A DNA stretch of 64,000 nucleotides from Chloroflexota bacterium (GCA_018648325.1 JABGRK010000010.1:200621-264620); one strand, 5' to 3'. Positions 28,758 through 51,745 are shown, counted from the stretch's first letter. Notes: generated from the letters alone by a model not told the origin. Translations and numbers: made by a program.

Positions 28758-31700
28758 TTGGTCAAGGGTAAGAAAAAAATAGACAAGAGCGCTCATCTTT
28801 ATCGGTTGCCGAACAGGCACCGGACTGAGAGAGACCTTATATATTGGGGCAAGGTTGCCGGTCTTGCCACCCTACGATTCATCAGGGACAAAGGCAATGT
28901 TGTGGCATTGTCTCGTTCCAACTGGAATCTACGGGGTTTTATTCTCCTCAGCTTTTTCTTTGGTGGAATGGCCAGTCTGATGGATCAGGTGTTGTGGATG
29001 CGCCAGTTGGGGCTCATTTTCGGCACAACCATGCAGGCGGTTAGTACTGTATTGGCCATTTTCATGGCTGGGCTTGCGCTGGGCAGCTTCCTTTTTGGCA
29101 GAATGGCTGATAAAAGTAAAAATCCGTTACGCCTGTTTGCTTTGCTGCAGATTGGCATTGGCTCATATGTAATGCTGACCCCGCTGATTTTCAAAGCACT
29201 TAACGCGACTCAGGTATCGATTTATGGCTCTTTGCCAGTGGGCAGTGCTGGTATTACCATACTGCGCATACTGTTCGCATTTCTGGTACTTATAGTCCCA
29301 ACCACGCTTATGGGCGGCACTCTGCCTGTTATTGCCAAGTACTTTGTACGCAAGCGGGATGAACTGGGCGGTGGATTGGGTAATTTGTACTTCATTAACA
29401 CACTGGGCGCGGTGCTGGGCGCTTTTCTGGCTGGTTTCTTCCTTATACCATATATCGGCGTTTTGGCTGCGACCTTGTTGGCGGCGTCTATCGACTTGAC
29501 TATAGGAGTGGTCTTTTATTTGCTTTGCCGATCGAGGTTGAAGCCTAAGGACGAGCCAATGCCGGTTGTCCAAGAGGAAGTTGTTCAAGAGCCTGCATTG
29601 CTTGCAAAAAAACAGCTCAAACGGCAGGAGCGCATACATCGCAAGCAGGAAAGACTGAAGCCAGAAGTATACTCCAGGGCGATAAAGATAGTTGTATTTG
29701 TCGGTTTTGCCTTTGGAGGGCTGGCTGCCATAAGCCTTGAGGTTTCCTGGACGCGTGTTCTTTCCATGATTCTGGGCAGTTCGATATATGCTTTTAGCCT
29801 TATGCTGACTGCTTTTCTGCTGGGCATTGCCCTGGGCAGCGCCATTGTTTCCAAGTTCGTTGATCGATTGAGACACCTGTGGGTGTACTTCTTGGCGGTG
29901 CAGGTGCTTATTGGGCTGGCCGTTTTAGTTCTTAATCCAATATTTGGCGAACTGCCGCTTCTTTTTGTGCGTATTTTCCCGAATCTTCAGGCGAACTTCT
30001 GGCTATTGCAGTTTGTGCAGTTCTTGTTGCTACTGCTTATAATGCTTGTTCCCACACTGCTAATGGGTGCTGCATTCCCAATCGCTGCCAGGATTTATAG
30101 TGATGATATGGAGCACATGGGTGGTTCGGTTGGCAGGCTCTATGCCGGAAACACATTCGGGTCAATGGTAGGCCCGCTTATAGCCGGATTTATCATTATT
30201 CCTCTCATCGGCATTCAGTGGAGCATATCGCTTGTTTCTATAATCTATCTGGTTATTGCCGGCGCAGTTTTCATTGTCGGCTTCAAGGAGCGTCTGGCCT
30301 CTTCCGGTGCCGATTTTATTAACGGATGCAAGCAACGTTTGTGGTGGCCTTATGTGACAAGGGCAGGGCGTTTTATATCCCGGAAAGCCCGCGTGATTCC
30401 TATCATCAGGGGGATTGTACTATTACCGGTGGTGCTTATCTGGCCACTGATTAACCCGGCACGTACGGCAAGGGCAATTGCCTCTGCCTCCTTTGGACTC
30501 ACCGTGGTTATCTTGCCGGCCTTGCTTGTGGCTACTATCCTTGTTCCTACTTTGGGTTCGTGGAATAAAAAGATACTCAACAGCGGTGTTTTTCTATATG
30601 CCGATAATTATCAGGGCGCGGGAGATTTAGCAGCGTCGATCAGTGGTAGTGGCCAATTTGTATTCTACGACGAGGGTTTGATGGCGACCGTGGCCGTTTA
30701 CGATGAGGAAAATGGTGATAGATCGCTTACAGTAGACGGCAAGGTTGATGCCACCAGCTTCGGAGATTTACCCACCGAACTGATCTCCGGACACCTGCCC
30801 ATGATTTTACATGAGAATCCTGAAGAAGTACTGCTTATTGGATTGGGCAGTGGTATTACACTTGGTGCGGTAGAGCAATATCCATCTCTGATTAATGTAG
30901 AAGCGGTGGAGATTTCAAACGCCGTCATAGAAAGCGCTAAGTATTTTAAAGAGGCCAACCATGATGCTCTAAACAACGAAAAACTGACCATGATACAGGC
31001 CGATGCCAGGAACTACGTGTTTGCTCAAGGTAAAACGGGTAAAGAATATGACGTTATTACCGCAGAACCCTCCAATCCCTGGATGGCGGGCAATTCAATT
31101 CTGTTTACCAGGGAGCAGTTTGAGCTTTATAAGAAGGTACTTGCCGATGACGGTATAATCTGCCAGTGGGTACATTACTACAGCATGAGTCCCGCAGACC
31201 TGAACACAGTTATTGCCACTTTTACAGATGTTTTCCCCAATTCCACGCTGTGGAGAACAGGGGGGGACCTTCTGCTTATAGGAACTAAGGATAAGCAAAG
31301 CATAGATTTTGTCGCACTTAACACCAGAGTGCAGCAGCCGGATATTTCGGCCGACCTTAAAAGGATGGACGTTGATGACGTCTATGGTATACTGGGCAGG
31401 TTTGTTATGGGGCCAGAGGCTCTGGAAGCGTTCAGTGATGGGGCCCCAATGCATACGGATAATAATCCCATACTTCAGTTTTCCGCGCCCAAAAGCCTGT
31501 ATAACGATACTAATTTGGTGAATAACGCTCAGAGTTTGCAGCGAGCCGCTCAAAGGATAGAAGATATAGACTCTTTGCTTATTAATACAGATGATGATGC
31601 TAATTTCCCGGAGGAGATACAGAAACAGAGAGGATTTTATATCCATTACACCTCTGCACTTGTTAATGGCCAAAAGACGAACACTAGCCTGGCACAAGGG

Positions 31701-32906
31701 AATATTGCTGATGCTAATAAATACGCGAATGCGACGTTAGCTGCTAATGAGGCCATACTGGGTACCGGGGCCAGAGGCGCTTATATCAATAGGCACCTGG
31801 GTTCGCAAATTCTTGATAGAGGCAAGGAACAAGGCAATCTTTCATTTGTGGAACAAGCTATTCCCTACTTGGAACAATCGATTGCGCTTAATCCCACCGT
31901 TGTAACAACATGGGTTGATCTGGGCGAGGCCTATTATATTTCGGGGCAATATCAGAATGCTGTTGAATCATTTAGTGGTGCACTTGATCTTGTAAAGGGT
32001 AACACGTTTTTATATAACTTGCGTGGTCAGACATACCAGAAGCTGGAAGAATGGGATGCGGCTATCGAGGATTTTGATCAGGCTATAAGGCTTGCCCCCG
32101 CCTTCACCGATGTTTGGGCCTCCAGAGCATTGGCCTATATGAACTTCGCGTTTGAGACGGAAAACGATGAGGAAAAAGATGCCCGTTTGGATAGAGCCCT
32201 CGTCGATGCCAATCAAGCGCTTCAGCTCGATTCTAGGCAGGCAGCAGCTTATTATATCCGGGGCCGGGTTTATTGTGAGCTGGGTGAGCAAACAGGTAAT
32301 AAGCGCTATTATAACCTTGCCATATCAGAGCAGCGTAAGTCTATATCCATTAATTCTGATTCGCCATATCCATATGTGTATTTGGGTAAAGCACAGGCAG
32401 CTCTGGGCGGCGAAGCGAATTTAGATGTGGCGAGGAAATCGTTTGATCTGGCAGTACTTAAAGGGAAGAACCAGGACGGGGACGTAATATACTGGGAAGT
32501 ATCATATGAGTATGGCCGATTTCTGTTTGAGAATGTAGAGGAATTGGACCTGTATTTCCCTATTGCGCTAGATAGAACCGAGGCCGCAGTGGCAAATATG
32601 CTTAGGGCATATGAGCTTGCCCCTAAACGTGCGCAGTATGTACTTGATGCTTTCGATGAGTTTATTGATCTGGAAAATATAACAAAGGATGATCTGGAAC
32701 ACCTCGGAACTATTCATGCGACTCTGCCCGATACCGATATTGCAGAGAGAATCCCGGTTGCGGTTGATGAAATGCTTAACTGGGATCATATTACCGAAGC
32801 CGATCGTGAGACTCTTGATGAGATCCTTTTATATCTGCCCATCACAGAAGTGGGACAAAGGGCTTTGGAAGCCCTTGATGTGCTGGATACCGCTGCCGCG
32901 TCTTAG
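28758..32906 (+). CDS. Large membrane protein: duplicated multi-TM domain + spermidine-synthase-like (SpeE fold, AdoMet-MTase) domain + C-terminal TPR repeats
   Basis: Two copies of the GG(M/L)A(S/A)LxxEVxW(M/T)RxLxLIxG membrane motif. SpeE-like core (LLIGLGSGITLGA...VEAVEISNAV...DVITAEPSNP). TPR units (AYYIRGRVYCELGE...). The first in-frame codon is TTG at 28758, but a GTG at 28902 preceded by AAAGG is the more plausible start. Confidence 0.75.
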   Translation: MVKGKKKIDKSAHLYRLPNRHRTERDLIYWGKVAGLATLRFIRDKGNVVALSRSNWNLRGFILLSFFFGGMASLMDQVLWMRQLGLIFGTTMQAVSTVLAIFMAGLALGSFLFGRMADKSKNPLRLFALLQIGIGSYVMLTPLIFKALNATQVSIYGSLPVGSAGITILRILFAFLVLIVPTTLMGGTLPVIAKYFVRKRDELGGGLGNLYFINTLGAVLGAFLAGFFLIPYIGVLAATLLAASIDLTIGVVFYLLCRSRLKPKDEPMPVVQEEVVQEPALLAKKQLKRQERIHRKQERLKPEVYSRAIKIVVFVGFAFGGLAAISLEVSWTRVLSMILGSSIYAFSLMLTAFLLGIALGSAIVSKFVDRLRHLWVYFLAVQVLIGLAVLVLNPIFGELPLLFVRIFPNLQANFWLLQFVQFLLLLLIMLVPTLLMGAAFPIAARIYSDDMEHMGGSVGRLYAGNTFGSMVGPLIAGFIIIPLIGIQWSISLVSIIYLVIAGAVFIVGFKERLASSGADFINGCKQRLWWPYVTRAGRFISRKARVIPIIRGIVLLPVVLIWPLINPARTARAIASASFGLTVVILPALLVATILVPTLGSWNKKILNSGVFLYADNYQGAGDLAASISGSGQFVFYDEGLMATVAVYDEENGDRSLTVDGKVDATSFGDLPTELISGHLPMILHENPEEVLLIGLGSGITLGAVEQYPSLINVEAVEISNAVIESAKYFKEANHDALNNEKLTMIQADARNYVFAQGKTGKEYDVITAEPSNPWMAGNSILFTREQFELYKKVLADDGIICQWVHYYSMSPADLNTVIATFTDVFPNSTLWRTGGDLLLIGTKDKQSIDFVALNTRVQQPDISADLKRMDVDDVYGILGRFVMGPEALEAFSDGAPMHTDNNPILQFSAPKSLYNDTNLVNNAQSLQRAAQRIEDIDSLLINTDDDANFPEEIQKQRGFYIHYTSALVNGQKTNTSLAQGNIADANKYANATLAANEAILGTGARGAYINRHLGSQILDRGKEQGNLSFVEQAIPYLEQSIALNPTVVTTWVDLGEAYYISGQYQNAVESFSGALDLVKGNTFLYNLRGQTYQKLEEWDAAIEDFDQAIRLAPAFTDVWASRALAYMNFAFETENDEEKDARLDRALVDANQALQLDSRQAAAYYIRGRVYCELGEQTGNKRYYNLAISEQRKSISINSDSPYPYVYLGKAQAALGGEANLDVARKSFDLAVLKGKNQDGDVIYWEVSYEYGRFLFENVEELDLYFPIALDRTEAAVANMLRAYELAPKRAQYVLDAFDEFIDLENITKDDLEHLGTIHATLPDTDIAERIPVAVDEMLNWDHITEADRETLDEILLYLPITEVGQRALEALDVLDTAAAS

Positions 32907-33008
32907 ACTGGTCTCAATCTGGCATGTTTGAGCCCCTTCGCTTTTCTCTTTAGCAAGTTCGCAGTGCTTTTTCCGCTCGCCCTTACCCACAAGTAGTTTC
33001 AAGAGGTA

Positions 33009-33050
33009 TTGACAACCTTTTGCTTTGGTGTTACATTGATTGAGCGCTCA
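33009..33050 (+). promoter_or_regulatory. Candidate promoter (TTGACA-16/17-TACATT) and perfect 10-bp palindrome TGAGCGCTCA (33041..33050) upstream of the TetR gene; possible auto-operator
   Basis: Read directly from the sequence. The palindrome lies between the -10 and the RBS (GGAGG at 33063). Confidence 0.35.
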
Positions 33051-33075
33051 CTCAGTGAAGCGGAGGTACGTGTAA

Positions 33076-33702
33076 TTGGTAAGCACCAACAATCATAAGG
33101 GCAAAGAGGCAATAACAAAGCAGAGAAAGCGGCAGATACTTAATGCCGCCCGCGATGTTTTCTCCCGTAAGGGTTTTGCCGAGGCCACCACCGCTGAGAT
33201 TGCACAGACGGCGGGTGTTTCCGAAGGCACCATCTATAATTATTTTGCCAGCAAGCGTGATCTTCTGGTGTCCCTTATCGGCGGATACGCGCTGGATGAA
33301 TCACTGCTTAACCTGTTTAAAAGCCCCACTATAAATGCCATTGATTCACTGCCCGCCCTTCTGGAGGATCGCATAGACATTGGTTTTGAAAACTCCGATT
33401 TGCTTACCCTGCTACTGGCTGAGATACAGCGCACTCCCGAATTTGGTGAGCAGTACTCCGGCCAGGTACTCAATCCGGGACTGGCGCTACTTAAGACCTA
33501 CCTGGATATGAGGGTAAAAAACGGCACTCTGCGTCCTGTTGATACGGAAGTGGCGTCGCGAGCAGTAGTTGCCATGGTTGTAGGGCTTATCGCTGTGCAT
33601 CAAATCGAGGGCAAGGATGGGTTCCTTGCCAATTATCCTGTTAAAGATCTGGCCGATGAAGTGGCCAATATTTTATCTGTGGGACTGGGAACAAAGAAAT
33701 GA
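33076..33702 (+). CDS. TetR/AcrR-family transcriptional regulator
   Basis: N-terminal HTH (ILNAARDVFSRKGFAEATTAEIAQTAGVSEGTIYNYFASKRDLL). TTG start 8 nt after GGAGG. Confidence 0.85.
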   Translation: MVSTNNHKGKEAITKQRKRQILNAARDVFSRKGFAEATTAEIAQTAGVSEGTIYNYFASKRDLLVSLIGGYALDESLLNLFKSPTINAIDSLPALLEDRIDIGFENSDLLTLLLAEIQRTPEFGEQYSGQVLNPGLALLKTYLDMRVKNGTLRPVDTEVASRAVVAMVVGLIAVHQIEGKDGFLANYPVKDLADEVANILSVGLGTKK

Positions 33703-33722
33703 TTGGGGTTGTTGGGGGATAG

Positions 33723-36700
33723 ATGAGCTACTTTCTGGGTATTGATATAGGGTCGATCAGCGCCAAGCTGGCTCTTATAGATAAAGACGGCGTGGTTATC
33801 GATCTTGATAGCATAAAAGTAACCACCGGCCCGCGTGATGCGGTGGTTGAGCTTATATCCCGCCTTAAGCAGAAATACGCTCTTGATGATATCACCGCTG
33901 TTGGTGTATCCGGTTCAAGCAAGATGTCCATCCCGGCCCAGCTTAACTGGCTGGAGTGCAGCAGTTCACTGTCTATCGCCTCGGGCGTTCTTAATTACCA
34001 TCCCGATGCCAAGTCGATTATCATGATCGGCGGGCAAAGCTCGATGGTGATTGAACTGGAGGACGGGCTCAACAAGCCATGGAAGGTGGATTCCAATCCG
34101 CTGTGTGCTGCCGGAACAGGTCGTTTCCTCGAGCAGCAGGCTTATCGTCTCGGTATTAACCTAGATGATTTCTCACGTCTGGCGCTGGAAGTTGACGAAG
34201 CCCCTCCCAGAATTGCCGCCAGATGCAGCGTTTTTGCCAAGACCGACCTGATTCACCTGCAGCAAAAAGGCGTGTCGCTGGGCGCCATGCTCTACTCACT
34301 GTGCGACAGCATAGCCCGCATGGTTGCTTCCTTCAAACGAGGGCCTTTTAAGGAACCGGTCTATTTCGTGGGTGGAGTCGCTGCCAATGATGCGATAGTC
34401 CGTTCTGTAAATGAGGTTATCTCTGATCGCAACAAGAGTGAAGTTGCGGTCACCGTTCCTGAAAATTACGTATACATGGAGGCCATTGGTTCGGCGCTGC
34501 TGGCTCGTGATTCGGGCAAGAATTCAATAGTAAGAATGCTGTCGTCTGAAGAGGTCAAACAGAGCTACTATGAGATGCCGCAACTAGACGAAGTTTCTCA
34601 AAGCAATGGCTGGACAGCCGAGCAGATCGAGAAGCCATTTGTCGGTTATCTGGGTATAGACGTTGGGTCCACCAGTACCAAGGCCGTTATAGTTGACCAG
34701 ACGGGCAAGCAGGTCATTTCCAAGAGTTATCTTATGACCGCCGGCCAACCCGTCGATGCTATTAAAGACGTATTTACCAGCCTTCATAGCAGTGTTGGCG
34801 ATAATGCCGAAATTGCCGGTGTAGGTGTTACCGGATCAGGCAGATATCTGGTGGGCAGTTTTGTCGGTGCCGATATTATCAGAAACGAGATTACGGCCCA
34901 AACCAAGGCTGCCGAGAATGTTGACCCCGATGCCGATATCATTGAAATCGGCGGGCAGGATTCCAAGCTGGTCATTAAACGTAACGGTGTTGTGGTCGAT
35001 TATCAAATGAACAAGGCCTGTGCCGCAGGAACCGGCAGCTTCATTGATGAGCTGGCCGAGATGCTGGGTGTATCGGTCACCAGTGGCGAGTTTGCTTCGC
35101 TGGCCTTTAAAGCTGAGCACACTATCGAGCTGGGCACTAAATGCGCAGCATTCATTGGTCAGGCGGTATCACTGGCGCAGCACGAAGCTATTCCTATCGA
35201 GGTCGTTGTTGCCAGCCTGTCCAGATCGGTAGCGCGTAACTATCTTTCCAAGGTAGTGGGTAATAGAAATCTGGGTCAGAAGATAATTCTGACCGGCGCA
35301 GTTTTTTATAACGATGCGGTTGTATCCGCCTTTAAAAAAGAGCTTCCCGATAAAACAATGATTGTTCCCGAGCATAAAGAAGTGACCGGTGCCATTGGCG
35401 CGGCGCTGCTGGCAAAGGAAGAGGTAGAGCAATCGGGCGTCAAGTCCGCCTTCAAAGGATTTGAGCAGGTGATTGGTAGTCAGTATGAGATCAGCACCTT
35501 TACCTGTAAGACCTGTGATAACAACTGCACCATCAGCCGTATGAATATCCCGGACGAGAAGCCTACATTCTATGGCAGCCGCTGCGACCTGTTCGACAGT
35601 AACATCGGGCAGGGTAAAGTAGAAACCCTGTTTGATAAACGTGAGCAGATGCTATTTGCCGATTATGACGAAACTGCCGGTACTGGAATTACCGTTGGTG
35701 TGCCGCGGGCACTTGGCATGTATGATTTTGCTCCGTTGTTCATCAACTTCCTCAACTCGCTTGGCGTAAAGGTCAAAATGTCCAATAAGACCAACCGCGG
35801 CATTGTGGAGCGGGCCATTCAACTCTCATATACCGATAGTTGTCTGCCTATGAAGCTGCTGCACGGGCATGCCGCCAGTATTAAAGATGACGTTGATTAT
35901 ATACTTTTCCCCTCTGCTATAAGAATGGGTGAAAAGGACGGGGATGAAAACCAGAAGTACACCTGCCCGCTGGTGCAGGCATCGCCGTATATCATCAGGC
36001 AGGTTCTGGATATCGGAGACAGGGCGCTGGTGCCCACCATCGATTTCAGCATGGGTGATAAGGATGTAATTAACAACCTTACCGATATCGCCAAAAAACT
36101 GGGCTTTTCCAAAAAAGATGGTAAGAAAGCCGCACTTAAAGGCTTAAAAGCGCATCGCAAATTCCAGGCCGATCAGATCGAGATAGGCCAGAACATGCTG
36201 GCTCAGCTCAGGGAAAGCGGGCAGCTTGGCGTTGTGGTCTATGCCCGGTCGTATCTGTCGCAGGATTCGGGAGCCAATCTGGGTATTGCAGAGAAGCTGG
36301 CACAACTCGGTGTGATGCCCATACCGCTGGATTTCCTGCCGCTGGATTCTATCGATGTCAAGCAGTTCTCCGACAGGCCCTACTGGCATTACGAGAGCAT
36401 GCATATCGCCGGTGCTGCCATAACGCTCAAGGAACCGAAGTTATACGGCATGATGCTCAGCTGTTTTGGTTGCGGACCCAATTCGTTTGTAACCAACATT
36501 GTTGAAGATATAACCGATGGCAAACCTCTGGGCCATCTGGAACTGGATGAACATGCCGCCGAGGCCGGACTGGTGACCAGGCTTGAGGCATTTGTCGATA
36601 CCATAAGCGGGTATCATCGCCATCATAGTGGTGATGAGGTACCCAAGTGGGATGTCGATATACGCCGCGCGCTGCCCAACTCCATATCGGTTAACGACAA

Positions 36701-37889
36701 AACTATCCTGATACCGTGGATGAATCCGCATGCAGAGATGTTGGGTGCAGCCATGCGCGCCTTTGGCGTCAAGGCAAAGGTGCTTCCGGAGCAGGATGAC
36801 CGCAACCTGATGTACGGCAACATGGTTTCATCGGGCAAGGAGTGTCTGCCGTATCGCATAACCATCGGTGATTTCATGAAGTTCTACTACGATAACAACG
36901 GCAATGGTACTGATCTTACCAAGGTTGCCGGTTTCATGCCCAGCGCTTACGGCCCATGCCGCTTTGGCAAGTACGCCGTGGAGCAGATGCGCCAGCTCAG
37001 GGACATCGGGTTTGACCTGCAACTGGAGACCACGGTTTCCAACGCCGGATACCGCGATTTCGGTTTGGGGATCGCCTTTGAACGCCTTTCGTGGAAGGGC
37101 ATCGTGTCAATAGACTATTTACAGAGATTGTTGTGGCGCTCGCGCCCTTATGAATATGACGAGGGCGCAGCAGACGTGCTTTTTGACAAATACAGGGCGC
37201 TTTTGGTTGAATGCATAGAGGCAAGAGGATCGCTGGACGAGGTACTTAGCCAGGCGGTGCAGGAGTTCCGGGAAATAGCAGACCATGATGCGCCCAGAAA
37301 GCCGCTTATCGGTATAAACGGTGAGATATTCCTGCGTACCAACCGCTTTTCAAATTGCGATCTGGAGCGTGAGTGCGAAAAGGCCGGGCTAGAGGTTATC
37401 GTATCACCCATGGGCGAGTGGCTCAATTACGTCACACATCGCTACATCGAAGATGCCGTCAAGTTCCGCAGTGTCAAGAAACTGATACGCGGATATATCA
37501 AAAGACGCATTCAGCGCAAGGATGAAAAATCGGTGGCAGACAATTTCAAGGGTGTTTTTGATCTACACGATCCGTCTATAAAAGAGGTCCTGAGTTATTC
37601 GCGTGCCTTCCTTTCATCCAAGTGCGGTTCTGAGGCTGTATTGTCTATAGGTACCGGCATAGAGTGGATGGAAAATCCGCAGTTCGCCGGTGTTATATCG
37701 GTGATGCCGCATGGCTGTATGCCCGGCGGAATCGTCGCGGCTATGAGCGAGAAGTTCAGTGCGGAGTACGGCAAGCCTTGGGTGAACCTTACGTATGACG
37801 GGTTTATGGAAAACACCAACCAGACAAAGATTCACAATCTGGCCGAGGTACTCAAGTATACCAGCAAGGAACCTGCCAAGATTGCTTAA
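33723..37889 (+). CDS. Fused CoA-substrate-specific enzyme activase (two BadF/BadG/BcrA/BcrD-type ASKHA ATPase domains) + 2-hydroxyacyl-CoA-dehydratase (HgdB/D-component)-like domain; 1388 aa
   Basis: ASKHA motifs are present twice: LGIDIGSISAKLAL and LGIDVGSTSTKAVI, with their downstream GGQSS/GGQDSK stretches. The C-terminal ~600 aa carry the Cys pattern typical of DUF2229/HgdB-like proteins. Confidence 0.8.
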   Translation: MSYFLGIDIGSISAKLALIDKDGVVIDLDSIKVTTGPRDAVVELISRLKQKYALDDITAVGVSGSSKMSIPAQLNWLECSSSLSIASGVLNYHPDAKSIIMIGGQSSMVIELEDGLNKPWKVDSNPLCAAGTGRFLEQQAYRLGINLDDFSRLALEVDEAPPRIAARCSVFAKTDLIHLQQKGVSLGAMLYSLCDSIARMVASFKRGPFKEPVYFVGGVAANDAIVRSVNEVISDRNKSEVAVTVPENYVYMEAIGSALLARDSGKNSIVRMLSSEEVKQSYYEMPQLDEVSQSNGWTAEQIEKPFVGYLGIDVGSTSTKAVIVDQTGKQVISKSYLMTAGQPVDAIKDVFTSLHSSVGDNAEIAGVGVTGSGRYLVGSFVGADIIRNEITAQTKAAENVDPDADIIEIGGQDSKLVIKRNGVVVDYQMNKACAAGTGSFIDELAEMLGVSVTSGEFASLAFKAEHTIELGTKCAAFIGQAVSLAQHEAIPIEVVVASLSRSVARNYLSKVVGNRNLGQKIILTGAVFYNDAVVSAFKKELPDKTMIVPEHKEVTGAIGAALLAKEEVEQSGVKSAFKGFEQVIGSQYEISTFTCKTCDNNCTISRMNIPDEKPTFYGSRCDLFDSNIGQGKVETLFDKREQMLFADYDETAGTGITVGVPRALGMYDFAPLFINFLNSLGVKVKMSNKTNRGIVERAIQLSYTDSCLPMKLLHGHAASIKDDVDYILFPSAIRMGEKDGDENQKYTCPLVQASPYIIRQVLDIGDRALVPTIDFSMGDKDVINNLTDIAKKLGFSKKDGKKAALKGLKAHRKFQADQIEIGQNMLAQLRESGQLGVVVYARSYLSQDSGANLGIAEKLAQLGVMPIPLDFLPLDSIDVKQFSDRPYWHYESMHIAGAAITLKEPKLYGMMLSCFGCGPNSFVTNIVEDITDGKPLGHLELDEHAAEAGLVTRLEAFVDTISGYHRHHSGDEVPKWDVDIRRALPNSISVNDKTILIPWMNPHAEMLGAAMRAFGVKAKVLPEQDDRNLMYGNMVSSGKECLPYRITIGDFMKFYYDNNGNGTDLTKVAGFMPSAYGPCRFGKYAVEQMRQLRDIGFDLQLETTVSNAGYRDFGLGIAFERLSWKGIVSIDYLQRLLWRSRPYEYDEGAADVLFDKYRALLVECIEARGSLDEVLSQAVQEFREIADHDAPRKPLIGINGEIFLRTNRFSNCDLERECEKAGLEVIVSPMGEWLNYVTHRYIEDAVKFRSVKKLIRGYIKRRIQRKDEKSVADNFKGVFDLHDPSIKEVLSYSRAFLSSKCGSEAVLSIGTGIEWMENPQFAGVISVMPHGCMPGGIVAAMSEKFSAEYGKPWVNLTYDGFMENTNQTKIHNLAEVLKYTSKEPAKIA

Positions 37890-37901
37890 GTCGCTTGCCT
37901 T

Positions 37902-39122
37902 TTAGTCGAGGTAGGCTTGCAGTGTTTCCCCCACGATTCGCGGCGGTGTCCATTTGTCGGGTGGATGCAGCCGGGGCAGCTTTTCAGGCACCCACTCAGT
38001 AGTTTTTACGCAACGCATTTTAATGGCATTTGGCTCGCACCACAGGGCACATCCGGCGCAACCCCAGCACTTGTCAGCATTTAAAACCGCTACAGTAGTG
38101 CCACCCACATCCTTCATTTCCATGGCCTGCCACGGGCATTTACCGGCACATATCCCGCAGCCGTTGCAAATGTCCACATCTATTTCCGGCTGCCAGCGTG
38201 ATTTCGCCCAGCCCCGGTGCTTCTGAGAAATGTCGTGCTGGTTCATGGCAACCCACAGATGGCAGCAGCAGTCGCAGCAGTAACATAGCGTTGATGCCGG
38301 CATGTCGCGGTTGTTTGTGTACGAGCCTGCTAATCCCTCAACAGACGCTTGCTCCATAATAGCAAGCAGTTCGTCTTTATCTATCCTGCGCCCGATACCC
38401 TTTGACAGCGAATACTCGGCTTCCCTGTCAAACAGCAGGCAGGCGTCCATTTGAGTCCTGTCGCATTTGTTATCGCTGCCTGCAATTTGTACGCGGCAGG
38501 GGCATGGTATTTCCACACACAGCTCGGTAGAAGCGGCGATGGCGCGCTGATCCTCCCAAGGTTCTATTTGATCTCGATCAGGGCTGGCGGTAAGCGCCTT
38601 CCAGGACGGCAGGATACGGCGCTGTGGCGGTTGCTCTTGCTTTGTGGCCCGCAGGCGAGATACACATTGCCACTCGCTCTCCTCGTGTTGTATGAAGTCG
38701 CTCCACAGTTTGGCAAGCTCGGGATAGTCACCCAGATTTGGATTAAGCAGCGTTGATTTGTGCAACTTTCCGGAGGATAACCTATATCTGTACCCTTCGC
38801 CCGTTTTAAAATCGCGCGGGTATATCAATCCCTTTATATGCAGGCTGTCCAGCGTTTTTTTTACCGTATCCACGTTGGCATTAATTGTCGCTGCTATCTG
38901 GTCAGACGGTACTGGCGCCCATATGATTTGCGTGCATACTTTGGCCTCAAGCGGTGTCAGTAGATATTCCAATATGCGACGAAAGCGTATGCTACCGGGG
39001 TAGCCGCTGGCAGCAATGAGGCGGCCGCATTCGTCTTTCTGGGCCAACACCTTCTGCTTCCACCCGGCCTCGGACAGATCCCGCCACTGTGCACTGTTTT
39101 TGTCGTTTGAAATTGCCATCAC
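37902..39122 (-). CDS. Fe-S protein: N-terminal winged-helix-like region, Cys cluster (CYCCDCCCH), and two 4Fe-4S ferredoxin motifs (CNGCGICAGKCP, CWGCAGCALWCEP)
   Basis: 406 aa. Motifs read directly from the translation. Function unknown. Confidence 0.6.
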   Translation of the reverse strand: MMAISNDKNSAQWRDLSEAGWKQKVLAQKDECGRLIAASGYPGSIRFRRILEYLLTPLEAKVCTQIIWAPVPSDQIAATINANVDTVKKTLDSLHIKGLIYPRDFKTGEGYRYRLSSGKLHKSTLLNPNLGDYPELAKLWSDFIQHEESEWQCVSRLRATKQEQPPQRRILPSWKALTASPDRDQIEPWEDQRAIAASTELCVEIPCPCRVQIAGSDNKCDRTQMDACLLFDREAEYSLSKGIGRRIDKDELLAIMEQASVEGLAGSYTNNRDMPASTLCYCCDCCCHLWVAMNQHDISQKHRGWAKSRWQPEIDVDICNGCGICAGKCPWQAMEMKDVGGTTVAVLNADKCWGCAGCALWCEPNAIKMRCVKTTEWVPEKLPRLHPPDKWTPPRIVGETLQAYLD

Positions 39123-39250
39123 TTATATAGGATTGTAACAGCAGCGCTTGCCGGGCGGCAACTGTGTGAACCACCGTGTAGTATTGAAATAACCGGCCTA
39201 AAAATGTTATCATCCGTCTTACTTATCCCTGTGCATGAAAGAGAGTTATA

Positions 39251-41938
39251 ATGGAGCGCATGAAGGTTTTCTTTGAGCCCAAAAGCGTGGCTCTTCTCGG
39301 TGCTACCGATCGAAAAGGATCGGTGGGCAGGGTTACGCTAAAGAACCTGCTTGCCTCAGGAGATGCCCGGCATGTATATGCGGTAAATCCGGGACACGAG
39401 ACGTTGCTTTCTGACATCAAGTGTTACCATTCAGTTGATTTACTTCCCGAAGTTCCTGATCTGGCAGTAATCGTCGTTCCTGCCGAGCGTGTTGCCGCAG
39501 CACTTGAGGAATGCGGTCAGTTCGGCGTCAAATCAGTTATCATCATCACAGCCGGTTTCAAGGAGGCGGGCGCAGAGGGCCGCAAGCGCGAGCAGAAGGT
39601 TCTCAAAATTGCCGCTAGGTACGATATCAGGGTAATGGGCCCCAACTGTATGGGTATAATCAGGCCCAAGTCCAACCTCAACACCACCTTTATCAAGCAC
39701 ATGCCAAAGGCAGGCAATGTCGCTTTTATATCGCAAAGCGGCGCACTGGGTGCAGGCATACTTGACTGGGCCATGAGCAAGAATATCGGCCTTAGCGCAT
39801 TTGTTTCGCTGGGTTCTATGTCCGATGTCGATTTCGGAGATATGATAGATTTCTTCGGCGAAGACCAATATGCCCGCAGTATAATCATTTACCCGGAATC
39901 AATAGGCAGCGCCAAGAAATTTATGAGTGCAGCCCGGGGATTTTCCAGAACCAAGCCCATCATCGTACTCAAACCCGGTAAGTTTAAGGAGAGCATCAAG
40001 GCGGCCATGTCTCATACGGGTGCCATGGTTGGCCGCGATATGTATTATGATGCGGTATTCGGACGTGCAGGTGTTGTCAGGGTTGATGAGATAAAAGACC
40101 TGTTTAACTGCGCTTCCATTCTTAACACTGCCAAGCTGCCCAAGGGCCCAAACCTGGCCATAGTGTCCAACGGCGGTGGTCCGGCGGTGCTGGCAACCGA
40201 CAGCCTGCTGGGCAGGGGTGGTAAGCTGGCCAAGCTTAGCAAGGAAACCATCACGTCGCTGGCTGAAGTACTGCCTCCTATGTGGAGCAAGTCAAACCCT
40301 GTTGACCTTTTTGAGGATGCAGACCTGTCCCGCTTTGAAAAATCGATCGAAACCGTGCTACAGGATAAGGGTGTTAACGGCGTGCTTGTCATTTTCTCGC
40401 CCCAGGGCAACTTGGTTTCTGCCGATCTGGCCAGTGCAGTTATTAAACTATCAAAAAAGGCAAAGAAGCCTATTCTGGTGACGCTGATGGGAGAACACGG
40501 GGTGGCTGAAGCCAGAAACGTGCTTCATGAGAACAACGTTCCTGCTTACGGATTTCCGGAAGAAGCGATAAAAACATATATATACATGTACCAGTACGCC
40601 AACAGCCTTCAGACCCTGTATGAGATGCCGGATGAATCGCTGCTGGATGTGGATGCGCCCAAAAACCACCTTAAAACGCTGATAAGCAAAGCGCAGCGTG
40701 AGGGCCGGGCGATTCTGGATGAGGAAGATTCGCGCAAGTTTTTGCGGTCATATGGAATTCCGGTAATGGGTGATGCCAACACACAATGCATAGCCAGCAG
40801 CCCTGAAATCGCCGCCAATTTAGCCTCACGCATGGGGTATCCGGTGGTGATGAAGGTATCGTCGCCGGACATACTTCACCGGTCTGATGTGGGCGGTGTG
40901 ATCCCCAACGTCCACTCCGACGGAGAGGCCAAAGAAGCGTTTGATCAGATACTTGCCAGCGTTAAGCAGAAGATGCCCGATGCTCGAGTCGATGGAGTCA
41001 GCGTGCATCAGATGGTCAAGGACTATGACTACGAGCTTATCGTTGGTAGCAAAAAGTCACCCTTGTTCGGACCGGTCATAATGTTCGGACGAGGCGGTAT
41101 TGAGGCGGAATTCTTCATGGATTTTGCCGTCGAGTTACCCCCGATCAATCAGGTGCTGGCCAGAAAACTGCTGAAACAGACCAAGATTTATGATCTGCTG
41201 CTCAATGGATTCAGATTCAAGCCCCCGGTTGATCTGCGAGTACTGGAGGAGATTTTAGTACGCCTCTCCAATCTGATAATCGATTTTCCGGAAATAAAGG
41301 AGATCGATATAAATCCGCTGGTTGTTAAGGGCAACAGCGCTATTGCTCTGGATGAAAAGATAATTCTGGATGAAAGTGTAACCAACGGGCATGCGCATGA
41401 CTATTCACATATGATAATCTCGCCTTACCCCAACAGGCTTGTACAGCCGTGGAAATGCAGGGATGGCAGGAGTGTAGTAATCAGGCCCATCAGACCTGAG
41501 GATGAGCAGTTGCAACGTGATTTTCTGGAGGGTCTGTCCGAAGAGTCGATGCGCTATAGGTTCTTCTATGTAATCAAGGACATATCCCACGATATGCTCA
41601 CCAGGTTCTGCAACATAGACTATGATCGCGAAATGGCCTTTATTGCAGAATACTCAGGCAATGGCAGCAGAAGAAGCGTAGGCACGGGCAGGTTGCTTAT
41701 CGATTCCGACGGACAGAAGGCGGAATTCGCCATTATGGTGGCCGATGATTTTCATGGCGTGGGGCTGGGTCTTAAGCTATGCGATCTGCTCATAGGCGTG
41801 GGCAGAGAAAAGGGTGTCACGCAGATATACGCCATTGTGCTCAACGAAAATGTCAAGATGATCAACCTGGGTAAGCGTCTTAACTTCAGCGTCCAGCGAC
41901 TTTCTGCTGAAGAGACCAAACTCACACTTGAACTATAG
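39251..41938 (+). CDS. NDP-forming acyl-CoA synthetase (ACD alpha+beta fused) with C-terminal GNAT domain: Pat/PatZ-like protein acetyltransferase architecture
   Basis: CoA-binding N-terminus (VALLGATDRKGSVG). Conserved phospho-His region (MSHTGAMVG). ATP-grasp segment. C-terminal GNAT motif (AIMVADDFHGVGLGLKL). Confidence 0.8.
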   Translation: MERMKVFFEPKSVALLGATDRKGSVGRVTLKNLLASGDARHVYAVNPGHETLLSDIKCYHSVDLLPEVPDLAVIVVPAERVAAALEECGQFGVKSVIIITAGFKEAGAEGRKREQKVLKIAARYDIRVMGPNCMGIIRPKSNLNTTFIKHMPKAGNVAFISQSGALGAGILDWAMSKNIGLSAFVSLGSMSDVDFGDMIDFFGEDQYARSIIIYPESIGSAKKFMSAARGFSRTKPIIVLKPGKFKESIKAAMSHTGAMVGRDMYYDAVFGRAGVVRVDEIKDLFNCASILNTAKLPKGPNLAIVSNGGGPAVLATDSLLGRGGKLAKLSKETITSLAEVLPPMWSKSNPVDLFEDADLSRFEKSIETVLQDKGVNGVLVIFSPQGNLVSADLASAVIKLSKKAKKPILVTLMGEHGVAEARNVLHENNVPAYGFPEEAIKTYIYMYQYANSLQTLYEMPDESLLDVDAPKNHLKTLISKAQREGRAILDEEDSRKFLRSYGIPVMGDANTQCIASSPEIAANLASRMGYPVVMKVSSPDILHRSDVGGVIPNVHSDGEAKEAFDQILASVKQKMPDARVDGVSVHQMVKDYDYELIVGSKKSPLFGPVIMFGRGGIEAEFFMDFAVELPPINQVLARKLLKQTKIYDLLLNGFRFKPPVDLRVLEEILVRLSNLIIDFPEIKEIDINPLVVKGNSAIALDEKIILDESVTNGHAHDYSHMIISPYPNRLVQPWKCRDGRSVVIRPIRPEDEQLQRDFLEGLSEESMRYRFFYVIKDISHDMLTRFCNIDYDREMAFIAEYSGNGSRRSVGTGRLLIDSDGQKAEFAIMVADDFHGVGLGLKLCDLLIGVGREKGVTQIYAIVLNENVKMINLGKRLNFSVQRLSAEETKLTLEL

Positions 41939-42163
41939 GGATAATTACCCTCAATCAACTAAACATCAATGGTTCACGATGTTCAGGATCTGTTTGTGAT
42001 AATGATCACTGCCACAAGGGCCGCATTCCTGATGGTTTTATTAAGGGTGAGAACGTGTACTCACTAGTGGATCACGATGAAAACTGCGGGTTTGTATACT
42101 GCTCCGATAATGAAACTGAGGTGATCAAACTCACGCTGAAATAGCAGTTGTCCATCGTGATTA

Positions 42164-42197
42164 TAAAAAAAGCCCTGCCATCAAGCAGGGTCTTTTT
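42164..42197 (+). terminator. Bidirectional rho-independent terminator (AAAAAAAGCCCTGC-CATCAA-GCAGGGTCTTTTT)
   Basis: Stem flanked by an A-tract and a T-tract. Serves the + strand Pat-like gene and the - strand tRNA/glmS unit. Confidence 0.6.
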
Positions 42198-42215
42198 AGT
42201 TTGATAGAATGTTTT

Positions 42216-42291
42216 TGGTGGAGCTGGGGGGACTCGAACCCCCGACCTCCTGTCTGCCAGACAGGCGCTCTCCCAATTGAGCTACAGCCCC
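42216..42291 (-). tRNA. tRNA-Ala (anticodon GGC), CCA encoded
   Basis: Anticodon stem CCUGU/ACAGG with loop CUGGCAG. G3:U70. 3' ACCA. Confidence 0.9.
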
Positions 42292-42366
42292 ATGGATCAC
42301 ACATAAAAATGTATCATAAAACGGCGTATGAATACAAGCGGGGACACCTGTGATCAACACAAATGA

Positions 42367-44139
42367 CTATTTGACGGTGACCGACTTGGCCAGATTACGC
42401 GGTTTGTCCGGGTCTTTGCCCCGCCTTATTGCCAGATAGTAGGCCATTAGTTGCAACGGCAGTACCACTGACAGAGGATAGAATATATCTTCCACCTCAG
42501 GAACCTTGATCCACTCATCATATATCTCGTTATACCTGTCCGAAATACCTATGATAAAGGCACCGCGTGCCTTGGTCTCAATAGCGTTGGATATTGTCTC
42601 ATGGTAGGTCTCATCGTTGGGGCATATAGCCACCACCGGCGTGCCCTCTTCTATCAGTGCTATAGTGCCGTGCTTGAGTTCTCCGGCAGGCATTCCCTCT
42701 GCGTGGATGTATGACAGCTCCTTGAGCTTTAGTGCCCCTTCGGAAGCCATGGCGAAGTTGATACCGCGTGCTATGTAGTAGAAGTTACCCTGATCGTATA
42801 GTTTATCCGCAAGCGTCATCAGGCTCTGGCTGTTCTCGGCAAAGCTGCCATTGATTCCCACCGACAGGCCTTTTAGTTTTTTAACGCCCTGGTCCAGCTT
42901 GTTCATCATGGCAAAGGCCAGCAGGTAGAAGATAACCAGCTGTGAGATAAACGACTTGGTTGCGGCAACGCATATCTCCGGGCCACAGTTCAGGTACAGC
43001 GCCTTGTGACTCATTCTGGCCAGTGACGAACCGGGCACGTTTACTATTGATACAATCTTGGCACCCTTAGCCTTGGCCAGTTTGACCCCTTCCATCACAT
43101 CGAGAGTCTCGCCGCTTTGGGATACCGCTATGACCACCGTATGCTTGTCAATGGAACTGGCGAAGTACTGGAACTCCGAGGCCATCACCACATCGCAGAA
43201 TTTGCTGGCAAGCTGAGAAAACAGGTATCTGCCTATCAATGCGGCGTAACGCGAGGAGCCGCAGGCCGCTATTATTACCTGCTTGGCCCGCAGGATATTC
43301 ATGGCAACATCCATTACGTGTTTCTTGTCCTGTGTGGCTGCACTCTGAATAGCCTCCGGCCCTTCGATGATCTCCTTGAGCATAAAATAATCATGGCCGT
43401 TCTTGCTTGCCTGATCCCACTCCCACTCAACCTTGACCGCTTTTCTCTTGACCTGTTTGCCCTTCTTGTTATATAACATGACGCCATCATCGGTGATGAC
43501 CGCCATCTCGTCGTCCTCCATAAAGATAACCTGATTCGTTTTCTCCAGAAACGAAAGCGCATCGCTGGCAACGAAGTACTCGCCATCGCCAACACCTATT
43601 ACCAGAGGGCTGGACCTCCTGACGGCCACTATCTTGCCGGGATCGTCAACCGAGATGACCGCCATCGCGTATGATCCCTCCAGTTGGCCGAGGGTGGCAG
43701 TAACCGCCTTTTCCAGAGGATCGCCATTTTTCATGTATGATTCAATGAGATGACCTATCACCTCTGTATCTGTCTCAGAAACAAAGTGATGCTCACCTTC
43801 CAGCTGATGGCGCAATTCCTGATAGTTCTCAATAATGCCGTTATGAACTATGGCCAGCTTGCCTTCGCAATCAGTATGAGGATGCGCGTTGGGGACATTT
43901 ACTACGCCGTGTGTAGCCCAGCGTACGTGTCCGATAGCGATGTTGCCGGGCAGTCCGTCCAGTGCGTACTTGCCCTGAACCTCGGCTATCTTGCCCACGT
44001 CTTTTTTGAGCAGTATCTCGTTGTCGTATATAGAAGCAACGCCAGCCGAATCATACCCGCGATATTCAAGACGCGTCAGCGCCCTTAACACAACGGGTGA
44101 GGCTTGCTCCTTACCTATGAATCCTACTATTCCACACAT
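42367..44139 (-). CDS. glmS: Glutamine--fructose-6-phosphate aminotransferase (isomerizing)
   Basis: N-terminal MCGIVG (Ntn Cys). Two SIS domains. C-terminal ...SVTVK. 590 aa. Confidence 0.95.
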   Translation of the reverse strand: MCGIVGFIGKEQASPVVLRALTRLEYRGYDSAGVASIYDNEILLKKDVGKIAEVQGKYALDGLPGNIAIGHVRWATHGVVNVPNAHPHTDCEGKLAIVHNGIIENYQELRHQLEGEHHFVSETDTEVIGHLIESYMKNGDPLEKAVTATLGQLEGSYAMAVISVDDPGKIVAVRRSSPLVIGVGDGEYFVASDALSFLEKTNQVIFMEDDEMAVITDDGVMLYNKKGKQVKRKAVKVEWEWDQASKNGHDYFMLKEIIEGPEAIQSAATQDKKHVMDVAMNILRAKQVIIAACGSSRYAALIGRYLFSQLASKFCDVVMASEFQYFASSIDKHTVVIAVSQSGETLDVMEGVKLAKAKGAKIVSIVNVPGSSLARMSHKALYLNCGPEICVAATKSFISQLVIFYLLAFAMMNKLDQGVKKLKGLSVGINGSFAENSQSLMTLADKLYDQGNFYYIARGINFAMASEGALKLKELSYIHAEGMPAGELKHGTIALIEEGTPVVAICPNDETYHETISNAIETKARGAFIIGISDRYNEIYDEWIKVPEVEDIFYPLSVVLPLQLMAYYLAIRRGKDPDKPRNLAKSVTVK

Positions 44140-46080: not shown

Positions 46081-46914
46081 TTACTCTGTGGCCGTAGCCT
46101 TTCTTTTTCTCCTACTTCGTAGTTTGGTAGTTCCCAGGTATGCAAACAATACCGCGCCGCTCAGCAGTATAATCGTTGCCCCCGACGGGACGTCCAGTAT
46201 ATAGGACAGCCACAGTCCGGCGTATGTAAACAGTATGCCGAAAAGCGTGGCAAGCCCCATCATCTTTTTAAGATCATAAGTAAACTGTCGTGCCAGCGTG
46301 GCTGGTATGGTCAGCAAGGCTATTACCAGAATTATACCCACCACCTTGATCAGTACTACTATGGTCAGGGCAATAAGGCACAGCAGCAGCAGATGCAGCA
46401 CTTTTACCGGAACGCCTGCTATGGCACTGAACTCCCTGTCGAATGACATGGACAGAAATTCTTTGAACAGCGCCAGTACGGCAATAATTATCACGGCATC
46501 CAGAATTATCATCAGTATCAGGTCGGCAGATTTCACCGTAAGTATGTTGCCGAAAAGATAGCTGAAAAGGTCCGGCGTATATCCCGGTGCCAGCCCGATA
46601 AAGATAGTGCCTACCGCCATTCCCATGGCCCACAATATACCGATGGTGGTGTCCTCGGTCAGTTTTGTTCTTTGAGTGATAACGCCGATGCCCAGCGCTG
46701 AGGCTACGGCAAATATCATGGCTCCAATTACAGGGTTTATGCCGATCAGGTACCCCAGTCCTACTCCGCCGAATGATGTGTGGGCGATACCACCGCTGAT
46801 GAAAACCACCCTTTTTGATACAACGTAAGTTCCCACAATACCGCAGGCTATAGCCGCCAGCAGCCCGGCGGCAAGCGCGTTTTGCATAAATTCAAATCTT
46901 AGTACTTCAAACAT
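46081..46914 (-). CDS. znuB: Zinc/manganese ABC transporter permease (ABC-3 family)
   Basis: 277 aa, 8 TM, ABC-3 pattern. Confidence 0.85.
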   Translation of the reverse strand: MFEVLRFEFMQNALAAGLLAAIACGIVGTYVVSKRVVFISGGIAHTSFGGVGLGYLIGINPVIGAMIFAVASALGIGVITQRTKLTEDTTIGILWAMGMAVGTIFIGLAPGYTPDLFSYLFGNILTVKSADLILMIILDAVIIIAVLALFKEFLSMSFDREFSAIAGVPVKVLHLLLLCLIALTIVVLIKVVGIILVIALLTIPATLARQFTYDLKKMMGLATLFGILFTYAGLWLSYILDVPSGATIILLSGAVLFAYLGTTKLRSRRKRKATATE

Positions 46915-46918
46915 GGCT

Positions 46919-47695
46919 TTAGTGTCCTTTTAACACGCGGTGAGGGTGATCACCGTGGGCGATTATCTGTACCGGGCATTTGTAGGTTTCCTCCAGCATT
47001 TCCGGGCTTATCTCGGTATTGCCGTGGTAAAATAGCTGCCGGTTCAGGCAGGCTATCTTATCTACATATATAGATATGGCCGAAAGGTCGTGCGATACTA
47101 TGACTATAGCCATTTGCTGCTTTAGTTGCTCCAGCAGTTCGTAAAACTCTGTCTGTGCCGCGCTATCCACGCTGGCAGTCGGTTCGTCCAGCAGCAGCAG
47201 TTCCGGCTCGGTTGCCAGCGCGCGGGCAATAAACACCCTTTGTTGCTGCCCGCCGGAGAGACTGCCTATCTGTGTATCCTTGTGCTCCAGCATGCCCACT
47301 GTATCAAGGGCGTGTGCGGTTACCTCTTTATCATACTTGCTGTACCTCTTAAACAGGTTAGAGCCTTTTGCACGTCCCATCATTGCTACATCCCAGACGC
47401 TTACCGGGAAGCTGTGGTCAAACAGGTTGTGCTGGGTCACATATCCCATCAGGTTTTCGCCTTTCTGGCTACTGTATTTGCAATATAATAACTCCCCGCG
47501 AGTCGGCTTGATCAGCCCCAGTATTATTTTTAACAGGGTTGTTTTGCCGCCGCCGTTGGGTCCGATTATGCCCAGAAAATCGCCATGACCAATTGTTAAA
47601 TTGATGTCCTCCAGCACGGGAACGTCATTGTAATACATCCAGACGTTTTCAAGCCTGATAATATCTTCGGGTGGGTGTGCCTGATTCTTGTTCAT
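46919..47695 (-). CDS. znuC: Zinc ABC transporter ATP-binding protein
   Basis: GPNGGGKTT, LSGGQQQR, LLLDEPT. Confidence 0.85.
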   Translation of the reverse strand: MNKNQAHPPEDIIRLENVWMYYNDVPVLEDINLTIGHGDFLGIIGPNGGGKTTLLKIILGLIKPTRGELLYCKYSSQKGENLMGYVTQHNLFDHSFPVSVWDVAMMGRAKGSNLFKRYSKYDKEVTAHALDTVGMLEHKDTQIGSLSGGQQQRVFIARALATEPELLLLDEPTASVDSAAQTEFYELLEQLKQQMAIVIVSHDLSAISIYVDKIACLNRQLFYHGNTEISPEMLEETYKCPVQIIAHGDHPHRVLKGH

Positions 47696-49054: not shown

Positions 49055-49068
49055 AACTCCATACTGTA

Positions 49069-51726: not shown

Positions 51727-51745
51727 AAAAGGGGGAGTTGCATAA

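Follow-up and report, generated by a model that had tools for sequence, protein, structure and literature searches.

Two questions are raised by a locus of Chloroflexota bacterium GCA_018648325.1, in which genes for a TetR/AcrR-family regulator, a giant protein of 1388 aa, an Fe-S protein and a Pat-type protein acetyltransferase lie side by side: on what the giant protein acts, and which of its neighbours work with it. The region studied (33009-41938) belongs to a stretch of 64,000 nt (JABGRK010000010.1:200621-264620), hereafter the window, in whose numbering all its positions are given. A sequence-only reading had described the four open reading frames, all of which are present, as a regulated, redox-dependent module centred on acyl-CoA and as a candidate for an undescribed system. 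The present analysis points instead to a two-gene operon, in which tetR is followed by a gene for a single-chain, ATP-dependent Fe-S lipid ester reductase of the PlsA-PlsR/Ger family, related in type to benzoyl-CoA reductase (BCR) and 2-hydroxyacyl-CoA dehydratase (HAD); the probability of this reading is about 0.65.

The giant protein is recognised by Pfam through BcrAD_BadFG (PF01869), matched in two stretches (E 2.2e-69), and DUF2229 (PF09989) at aa 657-871 (E 1.2e-49); HGD-D (PF06050) at the C-terminus is sub-threshold (E 0.002, 17-18.5 bits versus a gathering score of 28.4). NCBIfam recognises the activase domain only (TIGR00241, 247.7 bits, cutoff 125.4) and the sequence search of the PDB returns only activators (4eht, 1hux, 9gai, 7yyl_E), of which 4eht_A, the 2-hydroxyisocaproyl-CoA dehydratase activator, matches the second ATPase domain (E 7e-30) and 7yyl_E, the reductase partner of DCCP, the activase domain (E 6.6e-21); the protein had been read as an activase with an appendage because both searches show only this part. 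A profile built from 42 sequences for the C-terminal 814 aa matched no PDB chain at E <= 10. The AlphaFold model of aa 575-1388 (predicted local distance difference test, pLDDT, 82.5; predicted template modelling score 0.83) contains two modules and a beta domain (strands 15-44), and its Foldseek matches are DCCP (7yyl_A, 6eno), the BzdNO benzoyl-CoA reductase core (8s02_B) and the 2-hydroxyisocaproyl-CoA dehydratase HadBC (3o3m_B/D), each with probability 1.0, E ~1e-4 and coverage of about half of the 814-aa model. Aligned with each other by hhalign, catalytic modules 1 and 2 gave no significant match (probability 1%), although a shared 'G-C-x-P ... KP' element did align.

Fourteen cysteines of cluster type, i.e. 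two in each ATPase domain, four in a CxxCxxxC...C motif and three in each catalytic module, are invariant in 42-50 homologues. The best homologues of the giant protein all come from metagenome-assembled genomes of Chloroflexota/Dehalococcoidia. As modelled, an activase pseudo-dimer would be joined to a catalytic pseudo-heterodimer within the chain of the giant protein, which is predicted to be a self-contained enzyme. The earlier description, two activase domains fused to a HgdB-like dehydratase component, is borne out for the activases and, at the level of the fold, for the C-terminus; the single C-terminal domain has to be replaced by two modules, since the chain carries both halves of the catalytic component.

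This organisation is that published for Ger and PlsA, in which a BBD core (two PF01869 plus PF09989) is accompanied by small D/H (HGD-D-like) segments (PMC13159169). In anoxia, the plasmalogen synthase PlsA-PlsR and Ger replace the sn-1 ester bond of membrane glycerolipids by an ether bond of vinyl or alkyl type (PMC13159169, PMC8788747, PMC12838417, PMC9702350); the substrates of the tested members are glycerolipid esters and not CoA esters (PMC13159169, PMC9702350), and both PlsA and Ger are active alone on expression in E. coli (PMC13159169, PMC12838417). Ger homologues have been defined by E <= 1e-50 and at least 30% coverage in comparison to T. maritima Ger (PMC13159169), and BBD homologues of Chloroflexota were previously classed among them (bioRxiv 10.64898/2026.06.23.733905; PMC13159169).

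For comparison, proteins of Listeria, Haliovirga and Paraclostridium were found by tblastn among the chromosome-sized records of a plasmid collection. The L. monocytogenes protein (1475 aa, annotated as '2-hydroxyacyl-CoA dehydratase') is the sole BBD match in its record; since plasmalogens of this species are reported via an active pls orthologue (PMC9702350), the gene is presumably that orthologue. The giant protein is collinear with it over aa 6-1338 (26% identity, 47% positives, E 2e-119). All 14 cluster-type cysteines are common to the Listeria and Haliovirga proteins, and Cys128/168 and Cys433/474 are kept in the Listeria, Haliovirga, Paraclostridium and Dehalococcoidia homologues alike. 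A paralogue of Paraclostridium bifermentans (pHD0315_2-2, locus L097, 3992-7840; 1282 aa) is devoid of seven of the 14, namely the four-cysteine motif and all the cysteines of module 2. The comparison shows that the BBD superfamily has functionally distinct branches, and by its cysteine signature the giant protein appears to side with the PlsA type and not with the Paraclostridium variant. Its membership of the PlsA/Ger family is very probable; that its substrate is a lipid is probable, at a lower level of confidence.

As to the records compared, the plasmid collection holds chromosome-sized or fragment entries (NZ_LR134399.1, NZ_CP030101.1, NZ_CP154629.1, NZ_CP084075.1), with sizes of 2.9 Mb for Listeria, 2.6 Mb for Acetoanaerobium and 2.1 Mb for Fusobacterium, which is a caveat for plasmid statistics.

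The conservation of the neighbourhood bears on the second question. With one genome scanned per species, the giant gene was found in at least 276 species-level genomes; the best 80 of these loci (L001-L080) were taken with flanks of up to 10 kb, and all are from Dehalococcoidia, with giant proteins 59-67% identical to that of the window. By tblastn, none of the window's TetR, Fe-S protein, Pat, MFS fusion, GlmS and 558-aa open reading frame is adjacent to the giant gene in any of the 80 loci. When three genes on each side were clustered in 78 loci, the most frequent neighbour family occurred in at most 11, and the recurrent neighbours are unrelated housekeeping genes such as those for RecF, a P-type ATPase, acyl-CoA dehydrogenase and GalT; among the upstream neighbours only (n = 70), no family is present in more than four loci and TetR_N is outside the 25 most frequent families. 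The giant gene is normally stand-alone in Dehalococcoidia, in keeping with an enzyme that is sufficient by itself and has a ubiquitous substrate.

The co-occurrence of partners is limited to a close subclade with a giant identity of at least 73%. In the window, L081, L082/83, L089 and L090 (giant 82-83% identical) the order is TetR, giant, Fe-S, Pat, with Pat cut off in L083. In L085-87 (82%) the first three genes are followed by an arylsulfotransferase gene in the position of Pat and, beyond it, by Znu, Fur and V-ATPase genes as in the window; this wider synteny indicates that the subclade loci are simply close relatives. In L084 (73%) the giant and Fe-S genes are followed by a methyltransferase gene, and TetR is absent.

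These data bear directly on the model of a single regulated module, centred on acyl-CoA and made up of all four proteins (TetR, giant, Fe-S, Pat). The four genes are indeed adjacent in the window, L081, L082, L089 and L090; Pat uses acyl-CoA, and the best NCBIfam match of TetR is the acyl-CoA sensor FadR of Bacillus, far below threshold (52 bits versus a cutoff of 200). However, Pat is replaced in L084 and L085-87 while the rest is kept, it has its own promoter, and no partner is retained in the 80 distant loci. Genes for CoA-transferase or 2-hydroxyacid dehydrogenase are not found in the window, nor do they form a conserved neighbour in the 78 loci, and the tested enzymes with this BBD architecture act on glycerolipids rather than on CoA esters (PMC13159169). 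A lack of co-conservation in related genomes, which the sequence-only reading had itself named as its refutation, is what these loci show. A four-gene module is thus very improbable. From the sequence-only reading the control by TetR and the redox- and ATP-dependent Fe-S chemistry are preserved, and the CoA ester is lost; the system is not undescribed, since both the PlsA/Ger enzyme family, of which the giant gene is taken as a Dehalococcoidia member, and the arrangement with TetR upstream have already been published.

The regulator (TetR_N, E 9.6e-18; TetR_C_7, E 8e-9) has homologues of 208 aa in the subclade, with 72-82% identity in L081-L090. The promoter of its gene is the best sigma-70-like match in 32800-42400 (10/12), and the candidate operator overlaps both the -10 hexamer and the position where transcription probably starts. 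The perfect palindrome proposed earlier as the operator of this TetR gene, TGAGCGCTCA at 33041-33050, is present; it is the core of a conserved, imperfectly palindromic 24-bp element to which TetR is predicted to bind. Taken by itself the core 10-mer is at chance level, with two matches versus 1.97 expected when one mismatch is allowed. The block TATTGACAA...GTGnTTTAATTGAnTGAGCGCTCAnTCA is invariant upstream of tetR in six loci (window, L081, L082, L085, L089, L090), in DNA with a mean column identity of 51%, and the -35 and extended -10 blocks are likewise invariant in these six diverged loci. Such invariance is a phylogenetic footprint, left by a promoter that the candidate operator overlaps, and points to a putative classical autorepression of the tetR-giant operon. 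Control of the giant gene by TetR is proposed because promoter and candidate operator are conserved and the 20-bp gap between the tetR stop and the giant ATG contains a ribosome-binding site (GGGGGA). The sole near-match to a second operator copy (28786, one mismatch) is inside the MFS gene and at chance level, and no copy was found at the Fe-S or Pat promoters.

A TetR gene is also located directly upstream of pls in E. faecalis (EF1326-EF1327) and in other facultative anaerobes (PMC9702350). An ancient TetR-giant pairing was considered and rejected: outside the subclade, the TetR sequences closest to that of the window (40-47% identity; L098, L101 and the P0342 contig) all precede genes of ABC-2/DrrA-type exporters, and TetR is not found upstream in the 80 distant loci. 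To judge from these relatives, the pairing was probably acquired independently here and is likely convergent with that of E. faecalis.

Several points weigh against a TetR-controlled lipid ester reductase. The ties of the TetR relatives to ABC-2 exporters imply a local recruitment, uninformative on the ligand. The giant protein is 25-27% identical to the Listeria and Haliovirga proteins, which share 38% with each other, so that the Dehalococcoidia clade is an outgroup. The Paraclostridium paralogue is flanked by genes for a Crp/Fnr regulator and an ABC importer, and the BBD superfamily is therefore not uniform. The likeness to the proven enzymes of C. perfringens (Q8XL48/Q8XL47), E. faecalis (Q835P9), T. 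maritima (AGL49404, Tmari_0479) and D. alkenivorans (SHJ90043) was drawn from published architecture. In the literature searched, no report of ether lipids or plasmalogens in Dehalococcoidia was found. Finally, the top Foldseek match of a catalytic module is DCCP (E 6e-5), a small-molecule reductase.

Alternatively, this machinery could belong to an ATP-driven Fe-S reductase or dehydratase whose substrate is no lipid but a small molecule, like that of DCCP, another ester or a CoA ester. In addition to the DCCP fold match (7yyl_A, 6eno) and the mere 26% identity to the Listeria PlsA-type protein, the divergent BBD paralogues in other contexts favour this possibility, and neither product type (alkyl versus alkenyl) nor function is generally readable from sequence in the PlsA/Ger family (PMC11868695, PMC13274423). 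On the other hand, the whole length of the giant protein aligns collinearly with PlsA-type proteins, whose cysteine signature it also shows unchanged, and a specialised catabolic role ill fits a gene that is housekeeping-like, stand-alone and nearly ubiquitous in Dehalococcoidia. A non-lipid substrate is therefore judged improbable, and a lipid ester reductase encoded in a TetR-controlled operon is the reading preferred.

By analogy with activases, HAD, BCR and DCCP, the steps of the reaction can be proposed as follows. The two N-terminal BcrAD_BadFG domains would pair as an internal pseudo-dimer, with Cys128/168 and Cys433/474 holding a bridging [4Fe-4S] cluster that would take a low-potential electron from ferredoxin or flavodoxin. 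ATP hydrolysis would then push the electron into the two C-terminal HAD/BCR-like modules, in each of which the three invariant cysteines may bind the module's own cluster. In these modules reduction and dehydration would turn the sn-1 acyl ester of a membrane glycerolipid into an alkyl ether or into the vinyl ether of a plasmalogen. Bound to the 24-bp palindrome, TetR would cover the -10 hexamer together with the start of transcription and repress the operon until released by a ligand, plausibly a lipid or redox signal.

The third gene of the locus codes for an Fe-S protein in which Pfam detects a Fer4 dicluster at aa 312-369 only. The CYCCDCCCH string and the two ferredoxin motifs attributed to this convergent 406-aa protein are indeed there, with cysteines that do not vary among 18 homologues; the middle domain contains invariant CxC...C...C and CxCCxxCC motifs, and nine cysteines besides those of the ferredoxin domain are invariant. 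In the structural model (pLDDT 89) Foldseek matches the ferredoxin domain (HdrA, FwdF) and finds no solved fold relative of the Cys-rich middle domain. The winged helix assigned to the N-terminus stands less firmly, being weakly matched by Foldseek (probability 0.96-0.99, E ~0.1; 3r0a, AbfR2, ST1889) and by Pfam DprA_WH (E 0.036). The family comprises at least 844 clusters at 50% identity in an exhaustive profile search (E <= 1e-30), nearly all full-length, and is unnamed, its members carrying only generic names such as '4Fe-4S dicluster domain-containing protein'; a fusion protein of 677 aa (P0229) is among them. The idea of a rare family, suggested by 20 matches in a word index, was rejected on the basis of the exhaustive search.

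The Fe-S gene adjoins the giant gene in nine of nine further subclade loci (L081-L090 without L088, which is cut off and serves for TetR only) and in none of the 80 distant loci; family members at 26-33% identity occur in unrelated contexts with no giant gene linked. The stop codons of the two genes are 12 bp apart in the window (37887-37904), and 4 bp apart or overlapping in relatives (L081, 14158-14163; L082, 9336-9339); so short a gap leaves no room for a terminator, and the two transcripts should overlap.

This arrangement raises the possibility of a three-gene unit, in which the Fe-S protein would be the dedicated partner of the giant enzyme in the subclade, either as electron donor or as redox-sensing regulator with a winged helix-turn-helix. 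The convergent Fe-S gene is kept next to the giant gene at every subclade locus seen, while the other flank changes three times (Pat, arylsulfotransferase, methyltransferase); the stop codons are at most 12 bp apart or overlapping throughout the subclade, and the protein combines a 2x[4Fe-4S] ferredoxin domain with the nine further invariant cysteines. Moreover, activases require a ferredoxin or flavodoxin donor, as in the HgdC and BCR systems. Against the unit stand the missing adjacency in the 80 loci, the unlinked relatives and the size of the family; besides, the Fe-S gene has its own promoter, with the block TGTTGCC...CTGCTGGTACAATCC conserved across seven loci, and no TetR operator. Within the subclade the Fe-S protein changes more rapidly, with 62-72% identity as against 73-83% for the giant protein, and the adjacency may only reflect recent common descent in view of the wider synteny shared by these loci. 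The three-gene unit is consequently doubtful, and it is rather unlikely that the Fe-S protein serves the enzyme of this subclade as a dedicated redox partner in the cell, passing low-potential electrons to the fused activase or coupling redox state to ether-lipid synthesis.

The preferred two-gene operon leaves Pat outside. Its product shows the Pfam domains CoA_binding, Succ_CoA_lig, ATP-grasp_5 and GNAT and matches solved protein acetyltransferases over its full length (9it0_A, aa 5-883, E 3.2e-158; 9isq_A, E ~1e-158), in agreement with the earlier view of a full-length Pat-type, NDP-forming acyl-CoA synthetase fused to GNAT and divergent from the Fe-S gene; the Pfam assignments hold also for TetR, the activase domains, DUF2229 and Fer4. 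Pat is a genuine Pat protein and a replaceable neighbour, outside the conserved core; together with glmS and the MFS/spermidine-synthase/TPR gene, it is a synteny neighbour. The coordinates of the features are collected in Table 1.

Table 1. Features of the tetR-giant locus and of the adjoining Fe-S and Pat genes (window coordinates).
Feature	Position	Strand	Description
Promoter of tetR-giant operon	33009-33037	+	TTGACA (33009-33014), 17-nt spacer, TACATT (33032-33037), upstream TG
Candidate TetR operator	33034-33057	.	24-bp imperfect palindrome, CATTGATTGAGC followed by GCTCACTCAGTG, 10/12 positions symmetric; predicted
TetR/AcrR-family repressor gene	33076-33702	+	208 aa, TTG start, GGAGG ribosome-binding site 10 nt upstream
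Giant gene, single-chain enzyme, very probably PlsA/Ger family	33723-37889	+	1388 aa; begins 20 bp past tetR stop
First BcrAD_BadFG ATPase domain	33723-34508	+	aa 1 to ~262; Cys128, Cys168; spanned by 9gai_C match
Second BcrAD_BadFG ATPase domain	34650-35420	+	aa 310-566 (Pfam best stretch 310-564); Cys433, Cys474; 4eht_A match
CxxCxxxC...C motif	35505-35585	+	Cys595, 598, 602, 621; small beta domain between ATPase pair and catalytic modules
Catalytic module 1, including DUF2229	35691-36629	+	aa 657-969; Cys707, 748, 917
Catalytic module 2, PlsR-equivalent part	36702-37862	+	aa 994-1380; Cys1041, 1079, 1332; weak HGD-D segment aa 1316-1369
Fe-S protein gene	37902-39122	-	406 aa; convergent with giant gene, 12 bp between stop codons
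Fe-S protein domains	~38778-38990; 38223-38630; 38007-38195	-	Winged helix-turn-helix-like N-terminus; Cys-rich middle; 2x[4Fe-4S] ferredoxin
Fe-S gene promoter-like site	39132-39161	-	TTGCCG, 18-nt spacer, TACAAT, with TG
Pat promoter	39184-39213	+	Separate from tetR-giant promoter
Pat-type protein acetyltransferase gene	39251-41938	+	895 aa

On the left, tetR is flanked by a gene for a 1382-aa MFS/spermidine-synthase/TPR fusion (28758-32906, + strand), corresponding to the NCBIfam family 'fused MFS/spermidine synthase' and located directly upstream of tetR also in L081, L085-87 and L089 (38-61% identity). Beyond Pat, the right flank contains glmS, the 558-aa open reading frame, znuABC, fur and an A/V-type ATPase operon. 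In particular, the 558-aa frame (44364-46040, + strand), placed between glmS and znuB, has no Pfam or NCBIfam match and is absent from the syntenic L085-87; znuBCA with fur/zur (- strand) and then the A/V-type ATPase operon (subunits I, K/c, E, C, A, B, D; + strand) occupy 46081-58140. Elsewhere in the window, an open reading frame at 23006-23830 (- strand) with a weak match to the IS1 transposase DDE domain (E 3.5e-7) may be a degraded insertion sequence.

If the assignment of the giant protein is right, nearly all Dehalococcoidia carry a stand-alone gene of the PlsA/Ger type, and these anaerobes, which abound in sediments, aquifers and the deep sea, could contribute bacterial ether lipids or plasmalogens in a way so far overlooked, with a bearing on the interpretation of ether-lipid biomarkers; this concerns the whole family and not only the window. 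The public label 'acyl-CoA dehydratase activase' steers readers wrongly to CoA-ester hypotheses. The conserved candidate TetR operator could be used for finding the signal that controls the giant enzyme. The main remaining lead is the Fe-S protein, a weakly supported candidate partner from a large uncharacterised family; its partnership, if true, would provide the first function for this family of at least 844 clusters and the first natural electron donor for the enzyme class.

Among known systems, TetR/AcrR repressors share with the TetR of the window the N-terminal helix-turn-helix, a helical ligand domain (TetR_C_7 in the window) and a palindromic operator at their own promoter (a candidate in the window), and the window Pat matches Pat/YfiQ-type lysine acetyltransferases over its full length with nothing unusual. 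The giant protein has in common with 2-hydroxyacyl-CoA dehydratases (HgdC/HadI plus HgdAB/HadBC) and class I benzoyl-CoA reductases the activator ATPase (4eht_A, 1hux_A, 9gai), the fold of the catalytic modules (3o3m_B/D, 8s02_B) and three cysteines per module. Unlike in the dehydratases, its parts are fused, its catalytic part has no sequence-level PDB match and a sub-threshold HGD-D, and its locus is without the CoA-transferase or dehydrogenase context of their clusters. DCCP and DCCP-R of C. hydrogenoformans (6eno, 7yyl) provide the best structural match of a catalytic module and a relative of the activase domain, respectively; however, they are separate proteins of a two-component system with one type of catalytic subunit, an [8Fe-9S] double cubane and small-molecule substrates, whereas the giant protein is fused and has two non-identical modules with three invariant cysteines each.

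Ger (T. maritima Tmari_0479; D. alkenivorans SHJ90043), compared through its published architecture, resembles the giant protein in the BBD core, the small HGD-D-like segments and the two activation domains, a feature that the authors link to producers of alkyl ethers; homologues are reported in Chloroflexi (PMC13159169, PMC13274423). PlsA-PlsR, encoded by two genes in C. perfringens (CPE1194-1195) and by a single gene in E. faecalis (EF1327), Listeria, Lactococcus and Bifidobacterium, has the layout of the giant protein, in which some 1400 aa hold a pair of activase domains, DUF2229 and a further reductase/dehydratase module; it is labelled Act1, Act2, Red1 and Red2 in the legend of Fig. 8 of PMC12838417. 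The enterococcal and streptococcal PlsA are 48-55% identical to that of C. perfringens (PMC12838417), in comparison to the 25-27% between the giant protein and the Listeria and Haliovirga proteins, with respect to which it has two extra cysteines (1218 and 1301) specific to Dehalococcoidia. Unlike the hosts of PlsA, the host here belongs to a class for which the literature searched reports no plasmalogens, and its TetR, unlike that linked to PlsA, comes from a lineage otherwise controlling ABC-2 exporters; in both E. faecalis and the window, a TetR gene lies directly upstream of the enzyme gene (PMC9702350).

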